This document shows positions 34,027-35,874 of a stretch of 64,000 nucleotides of DNA, in pieces. Each line of letters opens with the position of its first letter. Within the stretch, counting starts at the first letter, position 1. Source of the stretch: Candidatus Magasanikbacteria bacterium RIFCSPHIGHO2_01_FULL_41_23 (GTDB lineage Bacteria; Patescibacteriota; Patescibacteriia; Magasanikbacterales; UBA922); the NCBI GenBank assembly GCA_001782805.1, contig MFPT01000019.1, forward strand, positions 1,801-65,800, in the 5' to 3' direction. The translations under genes were made by a program, and so were the position numbers. The notes beneath the pieces were generated by a model that was given only the letters and a program-made list of their open reading frames with translations, made no database searches and was not told the origin of the DNA.

Positions 34027-35874
34027 ATGGAAATTCGCAACATTGCCATTATCGCGCACGTTGATCACGGCAAAACCACTTTGACCGATGCTTTGATGCG
34101 CCAAACCGGTATGGTAACGGATGAAACAGTAACCATGGATTCCAACGCTCTGGAAAAAGAACGCGGCATTACGATTTACGCCAAAAATGGCAGTTTATTT
34201 TACCCCTCGACCCATTCGATTGGGGCTCAGGGCTCAGGGCGAGAACCTACAAAAATAAATATTGTTGACACACCTGGCCACGCGGATTTTGGTTCAGAAG
34301 TGGAACGCGTTTTGCGCTCCATTGATTCCGTGCTTTTGATTGTGGATGCGCAAGAAGGGCCTATGCCGCAAACAAAATTTGTGTTAAAAAAATCTTTGGA
34401 ATTGGGACTTAAACCGATTGTAGTTTTAAATAAAATTGATAAACCGGCCGCTGATGTCCAACGTTCGCACGATCAAGTGTTGGAATTGTTTATGGATTTG
34501 GGCGCGAATGATGAACAATTAAATTTTACGACCGTGTACGCGATTGGCCGTCAAGGAATTGCCAAATTAAAAATGGAAGATGAAGGAAAAGATTTAACGC
34601 CATTACTGGATACGATTTTACGTTTAGTTCCGCCTGCGCCACATAATGTGGACGCGCCATTCCGCATGCAGCCGTTTAATTTAGGTTATGATAATTACGT
34701 TGGTCGTTTGGCAGTCGGTCGCGTATATGAAGGAAAAATTAACGTGGGCGATAAAGTAATTGTGAAAAAACCGACCGGTGAAACGCGCACTGGAAATATT
34801 ACGAAAATTTTTACGTTTAAAGGAACGACGCGGATTGAAGATACACAAGCCTCGGCCGGAGACATTGCTATGATCGCGGGAATCGCGGACATTGATATTG
34901 GGGAAACGATTTGTGTGTCGGCGGATCAAGAACCATTGCCTGCGATTAAAGTTGACGAACCAACAATTTCCCTGAATTTTTTGGTGAATAATTCGCCGTT
35001 TGCCGGACGCGAAGGAAAATTTGTGACCAACAGTCAAATTCGCGAACGCTTGGAAAAAGAATTGGAAGTGAACGTGGGTTTGAAAATTGATTTTTCCGCG
35101 TCTGATCATTATAAAGTATTTGGTCGTGGCGAATTGCATGTGGCGATTTTGTTGGAAAATATGCGGCGCGAAGGTTTTGAAATTCAAGTTTCGCAACCAC
35201 AAGTTATTATTAAAGAAATACTTTCGACAAGCTCAGGACAAGTTATTAAAGTAGAACCATTTGAAGAAGTCACGGTTGATGTTCCCGATGAATTTGCCGG
35301 CACAGTGATTGAAAAATTGGGACGACGCAAAGCCCAGATGACTGATATGCGTCAAAAAGACGGCCAAACGCGCATTATTTTTGAAATGCCCACACGGGGA
35401 TTGTTAGGTTATCGCGGTCAATTTGTCATGGACACGCGTGGCGAAGGAATTTTATGCAGTCGCGTTTTGGAATTTCGTCCGTATGTCGGTGAAATTGCCA
35501 AACGTGATGTTGGTTCTATGGTTTCCATGGTGGATGGCAAAGCGCTTGGTTTTTCTTTATTTAATTTGCAGGATCGCGGTGTTTTGTATATTCCTCCCGC
35601 GACCGAAGTGTATGAAGGCATGGTCATTGGTAATGTCAGTAAAGGCCAGGACATGGCGGTGAATCCAATCAAAGGAAAACAACTCACGAATATGCGCGCT
35701 AGTGGAACAGACGAAGCATTGACTTTGGTTCCTCCTATGGAAATTACATTGGAACGCGGTTTGGAAGTGATGGCCGAAGATGAATATCTGGAAATTACGC
35801 CCAAAAGTATCCGTTTGCGCAAGCAGTATTTGAAAGAAAATGAGCGCGTGCGCGCCGGCCGAAGCAGTAAATAA
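34027..35874 (+). CDS. typA: Translational GTPase TypA/BipA carrying two short in-frame repeat-derived insertions
   Basis: AIIAHVDHGKTTL, DTPGHADF, NKIDK. Collinear with BipA throughout, except the inserts PSTHSIGAQGSGR (34203-34243) and LSTSSGQV (35222-35244). Confidence 0.9.
   Translation: MEIRNIAIIAHVDHGKTTLTDALMRQTGMVTDETVTMDSNALEKERGITIYAKNGSLFYPSTHSIGAQGSGREPTKINIVDTPGHADFGSEVERVLRSIDSVLLIVDAQEGPMPQTKFVLKKSLELGLKPIVVLNKIDKPAADVQRSHDQVLELFMDLGANDEQLNFTTVYAIGRQGIAKLKMEDEGKDLTPLLDTILRLVPPAPHNVDAPFRMQPFNLGYDNYVGRLAVGRVYEGKINVGDKVIVKKPTGETRTGNITKIFTFKGTTRIEDTQASAGDIAMIAGIADIDIGETICVSADQEPLPAIKVDEPTISLNFLVNNSPFAGREGKFVTNSQIRERLEKELEVNVGLKIDFSASDHYKVFGRGELHVAILLENMRREGFEIQVSQPQVIIKEILSTSSGQVIKVEPFEEVTVDVPDEFAGTVIEKLGRRKAQMTDMRQKDGQTRIIFEMPTRGLLGYRGQFVMDTRGEGILCSRVLEFRPYVGEIAKRDVGSMVSMVDGKALGFSLFNLQDRGVLYIPPATEVYEGMVIGNVSKGQDMAVNPIKGKQLTNMRASGTDEALTLVPPMEITLERGLEVMAEDEYLEITPKSIRLRKQYLKENERVRAGRSSK

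Follow-up and report, generated by a model that had tools for sequence, protein, structure and literature searches.

The window analysed here, a stretch of 64 kb, contains typA as an open reading frame (ORF) at 34027..35874, and its product of 615 amino acids (aa) is 100% identical to TypA of Candidatus Magasanikbacteria RIFCSPHIGHO2_01_FULL_41_23, a metagenome-assembled genome of the Candidate Phyla Radiation (CPR, Patescibacteria) that comes from the Rifle aquifer. On the plus strand of this gene the 23-mer TTTCGACAAGCTCAGGACAAGTT is matched exactly at 35222-35244 and, as a preliminary description of this DNA had stated, it lies in frame and encodes LSTSSGQV. These codons belong to a module that recurs in the window and in other bacteria, and in typA they stand in place of Asp-Gly, the two turn codons between BipA domains III and V in most orthologues. 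The location in the domain III/V linker, also proposed in that description, is consistent with the alignment to Escherichia coli BipA (PDB 5a9v), where the insert falls within 'REID-GR-KQEPYE', and with the start of the Pfam EFG_C domain (domain V) at residue 409, directly before which the insert stops. In the AlphaFold2 model of the window TypA (mean predicted local distance difference test score, pLDDT, 81.8) the insert is a coil between strands 396-399 and 406-420. Our results suggest that the module is, very probably, a dispersed repeat acting at the level of DNA, which has been inserted independently and filtered by selection.

Two insertions in the same gene had been claimed, and another copy is indeed present (copy 1 in table 1; the copy described above is copy 2), with the qualification that it is far more degenerate than copy 2 and has sub-units duplicated inside it (CTCGAC / TTCGA / GCTCAGG twice). 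Copy 1 stands in place of Lys-Asp at the tip of the G-domain beta-hairpin directly before DTPGH, where, between strands 53-59 and 75-81, the AlphaFold2 model has a loop of low confidence (pLDDT below 50 for residues 63-71). Considering that the unit consists of eight codons with open frames, and that selection would keep copies in exposed turns, both typA inserts are therefore regarded as passenger loop extensions rather than functional motifs.

Judged from the alignments, the module copies are insertions, since they are absent at those sites in the closest TypA and LeuRS orthologues. For TypA the comparison comprised the 120 best-scoring homologues, most of them 593-597 aa long, which typically read Y-KD/KG-TK at site 1 (the position of copy 1) and I-DG-x-K at site 2 (the position of copy 2). 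Among these 120 proteins, only three positions have insertions or deletions of at least 3 aa. Site 1 is affected in 12 proteins and site 2 in 8, and the third position has a single insert of 4 residues. The site 1 inserts are module-like in 12 TypA proteins (e.g. PSADSGQV, PSASSGRPV, PSTGSGRES and PPSQDASDGQAKT), and three of the eight at site 2, besides that of the window, are clearly module-like, namely PSTSSGQVI in P0032, PSADSGQVLV in P0040 and the long insert of P0030. Fitch parsimony on a neighbour-joining tree requires at least 11 changes at site 1 and at least 7 at site 2, and the nearest neighbours of the filled genes are empty.

Related typA contigs (L121-L126) illustrate this pattern at the level of single sites. 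L121, whose TypA is P0002, is the closest relative of the window genome (92% aa identity); copy 1 is missing from it, site 1 being empty, and its site 2 reads GAC GGC CCC AAC GGG GCA AGC, which appears to be a remnant of the module in a different codon phase and hence the trace of a separate event. In L122, site 2 is CCT TCG ACA AGC TCA GGA CAA GTG, and L123, 93% identical to it in aa, has GAC GGC there. L125 and L126, with a protein identity of 75% and a DNA identity of 71%, carry the same module at site 1 with 24 of 24 bases identical (CCTTCGGCAGACTCAGGGCAAGTT), and L124 contains the dialect of the L125/L126 module, but at site 2. In LeuRS the insert is restricted to the window genome among the best 120 homologues, VV-(D/N/G)-G-CCERCG being changed to VV-THSTSSGQVS-CCERCG. 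No strain-level polymorphism was found within the 90%-identity clusters of TypA and LeuRS, in which every full-length member is as long as a protein with the insert; the two LeuRS members that are shorter are fragments. A separate feature of the TypA gene calls is that L121 (10001-10060), P0002, P0004, P0021, P0052, P0063 and P0075 have mutually dissimilar N-terminal extensions of 16-47 aa, which are probably the result of mis-called start codons.

The preliminary description had proposed a comparison of synonymous sites between copies, and these codon tests indicate that nucleotide identity is greater than the peptide requires, both within the genome and between genomes. Within the window, the leuS copy and typA copy 2, which had been described as near-identical, match at 20 of 23 bases and give the same STSSGQV peptide; five of seven codons are common to both, including the TCG, AGC and TCA serines (P(>=5/7) = 0.017, given the codon usage of the window). 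Between genomes, where the compared typA orthologues are 67-71% identical in DNA, the window and L122 have 7 of 9 module codons identical against a background of 0.36 at identical residues (P 0.014), and L125 and L126 have 9 of 9 against a background of 0.48 (P 0.0013); synonymous sites are thus identical inside the module and scrambled in its flanks. Together with the antisense and intergenic copies and the empty relatives, this upholds the view expressed earlier that the sequence is mobile or recombinogenic DNA rather than a coincidence or the product of selection on the peptide, where 'mobile' is what we infer from the patterns of presence and absence.

The module is a discrete DNA unit with sharp ends and a length of 24 nucleotides (nt), and its consensus is YCC-TTCG(A/G)CA(A/G)(G/A)CTCAGG-R-CAAG-Y. 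A position count over 180 copies reveals conservation from -3 to +20 only (Y-C-C-TTCGACAAGCTCAGG-R-CAAG-Y) and random flanks, and therefore the unit comprises 24 nt, or eight codons; by the logo, the unit of typA copy 2 occupies 35220-35243. Five of its six frames are open (PFDKLRAS, PSTSSGQ, LRQAQGK, ACPELVEG and LALSLSK), so that a precise insertion of eight codons never disrupts a reading frame. The peptides PFDKLRA, LSLSKG and PELVEG are frequent in spurious hypothetical proteins of many phyla, and we take them to be translations of the module. A second dialect, TTCGGCAGACTCAGGRCAAG (PSADSGQ), was first met in other TypA genes and is present at 111 unrelated metagenome loci with the same boundaries as the first. 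Tandem arrays with a period of 24 nt occur at L028, L030 and L072, and mosaic arrays, in which the sub-units CCTTCGAC and AAGCTCAGGG are repeated, at L002 and L026.

The window contains 7-8 copies of the module, of which six or seven are located within genes, on both strands, and one is intergenic (table 1). When TTTCGACAAGCTCAGGACAAGTT was searched with at most 3 mismatches, the sole other match in the window was in leuS (8762-8784, 20/23, HSTSSGQVS), with 0.00 expected from 100 shuffles; the 16-mer core with at most 3 mismatches gave 7 matches against 0.44 expected. The covariance model used for the window was made from 150 copies, all of them from other loci. The leuS copy stands in place of a (D/N/G)-G turn before the CCERCG zinc knuckle, with a net gain of 24 nt. 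Intergenic copy A lies within the loop of a 14-bp hairpin (arms 4730-4743 and 4787-4800; fold of the flanks -23.8 kcal/mol). The helicase-nuclease copy is situated in a low-complexity linker of a UvrD/PD-(D/E)XK helicase-nuclease (Pfam), the SerRS copy matches 18 of 20 core bases, and the ORF harbouring the weakest candidate (25299..25724) looks, by its sequence, like an ATP synthase delta subunit.

Table 1. Copies of the 24-nt module in the window, in order of position.
Copy	Position	Strand	Sequence and context	Covariance-model match
Intergenic copy A	4752..4775	+	CCCTTCGACAAGCTCAGGGTAAAC; sub-units partly duplicated on both sides	4749-4770, 26.2 bits
leuS copy	8758..8787	+	ACC CAT TCG ACA AGC TCA GGG CAA GTC AGT = THSTSSGQVS	8757-8788, sense, 38.3 bits (top match in window)
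Prepilin copy	18424..18447	-	Antisense in type IV prepilin leader, ORF 18404..18874 (MNMNKK-GLALSSSK-GFTLIELL); Pfam N_methyl match	18419-18450, antisense, 32.3 bits
Possible degenerate copy (weak)	25556..25585	-	Antisense in ORF 25299..25724; covariance model only	13.6 bits, E 0.024
typA copy 1	34204..34248	+	CCC TCG ACC CAT TCG ATT GGG GCT CAG GGC TCA GGG CGA GAA CCT = PSTHSIGAQGSGREP	34209-34249, sense, 11.7 bits, E about 0.1
typA copy 2	35221..35244	+	In frame; CTT TCG ACA AGC TCA GGA CAA GTT = LSTSSGQV	35217-35248, sense, 33.6 bits, E 5e-9
Helicase-nuclease copy	39046..39084	-	Degenerate antisense and partial tandem copy; ORF 36910..39981; VVSLSRSELVELSSQ	39069-39081, antisense, 14.2 bits, E 0.015
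SerRS copy (probable, degenerate)	51541..51564	+	GGT TCG GCA AGC TCA CCA CAA GGA = GSASSPQG	51538-51569, sense, 17.4 bits, E 0.0013

The window has several other features of note. The 3' end of typA is overlapped by an ORF (35840-36433) whose product is rich in Arg and Gly, has a Lys-rich tail and contains a zinc-ribbon-like motif, CxxC...CxxC. The intergenic gap that holds copy A also holds an inverted repeat of about 150 nt at 4855-5010 (tttcagtagtagataattttg...caaaattatctactactgaaa), for which there are only weak Rfam matches, resembling miRNA precursors. The window LeuRS (8242-11133) has a NUDIX domain (residues 389-504) that adjoins the editing domain, and LeuRS homologues of related CPR bacteria contain an alpha/beta-hydrolase, HAD or NUDIX domain within the protein; LeuRS looks like a hot spot for the insertion of whole domains. 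Long ORFs up to about 57 kb are almost all on the plus strand, and neither tRNA genes nor Rfam matches at gathering score were found in the whole 64 kb.

Outside the window, the distribution of the module is broad. A scan of one genome per species with TTCGACAAGCTCAGGRCAAG as an exact 20-mer found it at no fewer than 120 genome loci in about 17 phyla, against about 2 expected by chance according to our calculation. Among the matches listed are Acidobacteriota, Alpha-, Gamma- and 'Delta'-proteobacteria, Planctomycetota, Bacteroidota, Ignavibacteriota, Chloroflexota, many CPR lineages, Omnitrophota, Lentisphaerota, Spirochaetota, Cyanobacteria, Gemmatimonadota, Latescibacterota and Methylomirabilota, with Sphingopyxis, Citromicrobium, Chakrabartia and Arthrospira as cultured isolates. 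The module is present in 0 of 5,426 E. coli genomes, which rules out derivation from a universal RNA or gene. Of plasmids in PLSDB, 68 records match, mostly in unannotated DNA and including Nostoc and Gloeothece plasmids. Phages were rejected as the vector, because only 20 of 2.9 million viral contigs match; the matches in INPHARED belong chiefly to a single lineage of Pseudomonas phages, where they lie in genes for tail fibres or hypothetical proteins. In sphingomonads (L083, L085, L054, L038, L093 and L035) the module forms part of a longer intergenic repeat that is specific to the lineage, and a common block of 35-40 nt lies within 250 nt upstream of the unit in this Sphingomonadales repeat. 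In the 72 kb available from the six related typA contigs there are only four copies, in typA of L122 and L124-L126. No Rfam family covers the module itself in the window or at 20 loci, where the sole match was Acido-Lenti-1. A search of the available literature by sequence and peptide strings yielded no match except a coincidental one to rat miR-676, and nothing relevant was found on CPR and in-frame repeats.

The surviving copies are distributed unevenly among frames and hosts. At CPR loci the PSTSSGQ frame is used in 15 of 18 ORF-embedded copies, and for dialect 2 the PSxxSGQ frame in 41 of 70. Among the hosts confirmed by Pfam, in other uncultured bacteria, are GyrB, UvrA, PNPase, a GatA-type amidase, FolD, L19, AlaRS and aminoacyl-tRNA synthetases of classes I and II, including one of Trp/Tyr type. 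In IF-2 of L163 (1221-1264) two tandem dialect-2 units (PSADSGQVPSADSGQA) occupy the G-domain beta-hairpin before DTPGH, a position that is homologous to TypA site 1. At low-GC loci the unit is preceded by A in 37 of 56 copies, so that the preceding codon is usually Asp or Asn. Recurrence at the same TypA sites is most simply explained by structural permissiveness; a further target preference at these sites may add to it and is kept in view, because no copy lies outside typA in the 72 kb of relatives. L060 (Candidatus Sulfotelmatobacter) has two Rfam Acido-Lenti-1 matches (6668-6737 and 6875-6944). In each of them the terminal loop of hairpin 1, which has 1 nt in the Rfam model, is enlarged by an insertion of 25 nt, and this insertion is the 24-nt module; L005 and L111 have flanks in common with L060. 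Besides Acido-Lenti-1 and window copy A, copies at L014, L031, L109 and L110 sit in hairpin loops.

The ends, state of decay and internal covariation of the copies give clues to how they arise. No target-site duplication of at least 4 nt flanks the unit, and the net gains of +24, +21 and +18 nt mean that 0-6 target bases were lost. No ORF family recurs next to the unit at these loci, apart from generic ABC ATPases and neighbours that stem from duplicates of one contig. The search for a longer master element was negative too: flank similarity across phyla does not go beyond the lineage-specific repeats of sphingomonads and Acidobacteria. The leuS copy and typA copy 2 are close to the consensus, and typA copy 1 and the helicase and SerRS copies have decayed in place; inserted copies are therefore not maintained, and the agreement of young copies of all phyla with one consensus, in spite of this decay, points to a conserved source.

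Within the unit, positions -3 and +15 covary (C-G 115, T-A 51, C-A 32, T-G 6; odds ratio 30, p = 2e-19), and they do so in both dialects and all GC classes. On the complementary strand the combinations are CG 83, UA 36, UG 20 and other 11, so that 93% can pair, and 0 of 500 shuffles match this covariation. In coding copies both bases are synonymous third positions, and therefore protein selection cannot explain the pair. This one covarying base pair suggests a small hairpin on the complementary strand, which could be written as 5'-CUUG-[YCCU]-GA-G-YYUGY-C-GA-[AGGR]-3' and would consist of a YCCU/AGGR stem, tandem G.A pairs, a G-C pair, a YYUGY loop and a CUUG tail. In the proposed fold all three bases that differ between the dialects are within the apical loop.

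Taken as a whole, the explanation that the LSTSSGQV codons of typA are a copy of a 24-nt non-autonomous dispersed repeat, copied in trans and filtered by selection, is given a probability of about 0.6, in which high confidence in an independently inserted DNA repeat under selection is weighed together with lower confidence in the copying step. According to this explanation, new copies would be written by trans-acting machinery from a conserved source, probably through a single-stranded hairpin as the intermediate, and would be inserted without target-site duplication, often with deletion of 0-6 target bases. In gene-dense CPR genomes selection would then retain mainly the copies in exposed turns, usually after Asp or Asn, and would prefer the frame that yields the small polar peptide PS(T/A)(S/D)SGQ(A/V). 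Copying in trans through a structured single-stranded intermediate is a tentative component, for which we would offer somewhat less than even odds. We are slightly more reserved still about the widest formulation, namely that the module might represent a new class of micro-mobile element, a structured 24-nt unit with a conserved, horizontally spread source and trans machinery, active in most bacterial phyla and extending beta-turns of essential CPR proteins.

Several observations weigh against the explanation just given. Neither an enzyme nor a master copy nor a linked gene came to light, and mobility is read solely from presence and absence. The hairpin rests on a single pair, whose covariation could be mimicked by the descent of two sub-families, and its energy (-3.8 kcal/mol, z about +0.5) is ordinary. 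That the unit generally prefers hairpin loops was rejected, since flank folding energy and bridging stems are the same as at random positions. The SerRS copy was ruled out as a clean insertion: the orthologue loop is variable and nearly equal in length, and the copy is at most a replacement (+1 aa). The result for the 72 kb of relatives means either a low density across the genome together with a preference for typA that exceeds simple permissiveness, or a sample of insufficient size. Finally, the explanation does not account for the identity of the module across phyla.

The first alternative is templated filler or gene conversion, which needs no mobile-element enzyme of its own. In this 'recombinogenic' option of the preliminary description, host repair, through template switching or microhomology-mediated repair and with other copies in the genome as template, writes copies into breaks or stalled forks. 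It would fit the lack of target-site duplications and of a linked gene at the loci, the small and variable target deletions (net +24, +21 and +18 nt), the sub-unit duplications and mosaics in typA copy 1, window copy A, L002 and L026, and the arrays with 24-nt period at L028, L030 and L072. Arbitrary templates, however, would not yield ends that are sharp and identical across hundreds of unrelated loci; flank homology or microhomology able to guide conversion is not seen; and the identity across phyla requires a conserved source, which conversion within a genome does not supply. We therefore consider repair copying unlikely, although it is the strongest competitor of trans-copied insertion.

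Less probable by about half is a functional signal maintained by selection or molecular drive, such as a DNA-uptake sequence for the competence pili of CPR bacteria or the site of a conserved DNA- or RNA-binding protein. Uptake sequences, too, have dialects and can lie within genes where the frame tolerates them; the module has two dialects, its consensus contains CAAGC twice per unit, 11 nt apart, and CPR bacteria encode type IV pilins, one of them in the window. On the other hand, the copies are insertions relative to orthologues and not substitutions, many of them are visibly decaying, and their density is low, with 7-8 per 64 kb of the window and 0 outside typA in the 72 kb of relatives. 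A sequence that is shared by about 17 phyla and missing from E. coli is, moreover, a poor fit to a lineage-specific receptor.

The two remaining biological readings concern the protein and the ancestry of the gene. That PS(T/A)(S/D)SGQ(A/V) is a convergent functional motif of TypA, LeuRS and other proteins, for instance a modification or recognition site, could be argued from the strong preference for one reading frame and the recurrence at the same TypA turns. Such a motif is very improbable considering that codon choice is identical where the peptide leaves it free, that insert 1 is a low-confidence loop in the AlphaFold model, and that the antisense copies in the prepilin leader and the helicase linker give unrelated peptides; the module is also found in two other sense frames, in intergenic DNA and in loops of RNA motifs, and since it is read in various frames, on both strands and outside genes, a peptide motif is ruled out as its cause. 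Slightly less credible again is an ancestral loop that was lost repeatedly, or the transfer of loop-bearing typA segments, both of which would place inserts at the same two positions in scattered orthologues. An ancestral loop would have had to be lost at least 11 times at site 1 and at least 7 times at site 2, and filled genes have empty nearest neighbours. Nor does it accommodate the P0002 site 2 remnant, whose different codon phase implies a separate event, or the finding that one dialect, located at site 1 in some lineages, occupies site 2 in another. Transferred segments would have brought their flanks, whereas identical module DNA is bordered by differing synonymous sites, so that no flank is shared. 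Chance resemblance or an assembly artefact has nothing in its favour and can be dismissed, because 0.00 matches are expected from shuffles, TypA and LeuRS are found again in several NCBI protein records and on 12 and 9 contigs, respectively, and isolate genomes as well as the PLSDB plasmid collection contain the module.

If confirmed, the interpretation as an independently inserted dispersed repeat means that TypA, IF-2, LeuRS, GyrB, UvrA and L19 of minimal-genome bacteria have been repeatedly lengthened by one 24-base unit. A micro-mobile element of this kind would be a natural and continuing source of loop insertions in highly conserved proteins, and its recurrent insertion points would provide a map of insertion-tolerant positions in essential proteins. 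At the same time, alignments and trees can be misled when orthologues carry identical inserts that arose by convergence. The nearly invariant, pan-bacterial nature of the unit makes the movement of repeats of non-coding size testable, for example by phylogenetic profiling for a copying enzyme or RNA.

Among known systems, uptake sequences (DNA-uptake sequence, DUS; uptake signal sequence, USS) differ from the module in density, about 1 per kb against 7-8 per 64 kb, and the module is spread over about 17 phyla and consists of insertions, not substitutions. Compared with miniature inverted-repeat transposable elements, the module lacks terminal inverted repeats and target-site duplication and is 24 nt long, against the usual >50 bp. 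Acido-Lenti-1 (RF01687) overlaps the module at Acidobacteria loci, where the module is a guest in the motif and not part of it. The GC clusters of yeast mitochondria are short, GC-richer mobile inserts in AT-rich, gene-dense genomes, and they land in coding sequence; unlike the module, they are organellar, and module copies are open in frame and presumably translated. Repetitive extragenic palindromic (REP) elements are extragenic and species-specific, have long stems and are accompanied by the gene for an IS200-like transposase, RAYT (REP-associated tyrosine transposase). REPs and REPINs (REP doublets forming hairpins) are short and non-autonomous, comprise a tetranucleotide by a hairpin and are thought to be mobile as single-stranded DNA with no target duplication (PMC3116915). 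The module, by comparison, has a 4-bp stem (-3.8 kcal/mol), is mostly intragenic and has no recurrent neighbour gene at its loci.

The closest behaviour is that of the Rickettsia palindromic elements, selfish repeats that are found in frame in unrelated housekeeping genes at fold- and function-compatible sites (PMC10969869). In-frame insertion is common to both; those elements, however, are about 150 bp long, palindromic and restricted to Rickettsia, whereas the module is 24 nt long, has a stem of at most 4 bp and is pan-bacterial. The closest concept, by analogy, would be the small dispersed repeats (SDRs) SDR1-8 of Nostocaceae, reportedly described by Elhai et al. in 2008 (Genome Res 18:1484). 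In later papers SDRs are repeat modules of 21-27 nt with precise insertion, reported there only in Nostocaceae (PMC5861425, PMC4390886, PMC2884548), and SDR5 is placed by citing papers between the third and fourth bases of HIP1 (highly iterated palindrome 1). Unlike SDRs, the module occurs in about 17 phyla, is almost invariant, has no HIP1 target and is located here mostly inside essential protein genes. By description, which is the level of this comparison, the likeness lies in a length of about 20-27 nt, too small to encode anything, in a dispersed and sometimes tandem arrangement and in a mobility deduced from its pattern; the module is a dispersed 24-nt unit that is found both filled and empty at orthologous positions, namely TypA sites 1 and 2 and the LeuRS site.

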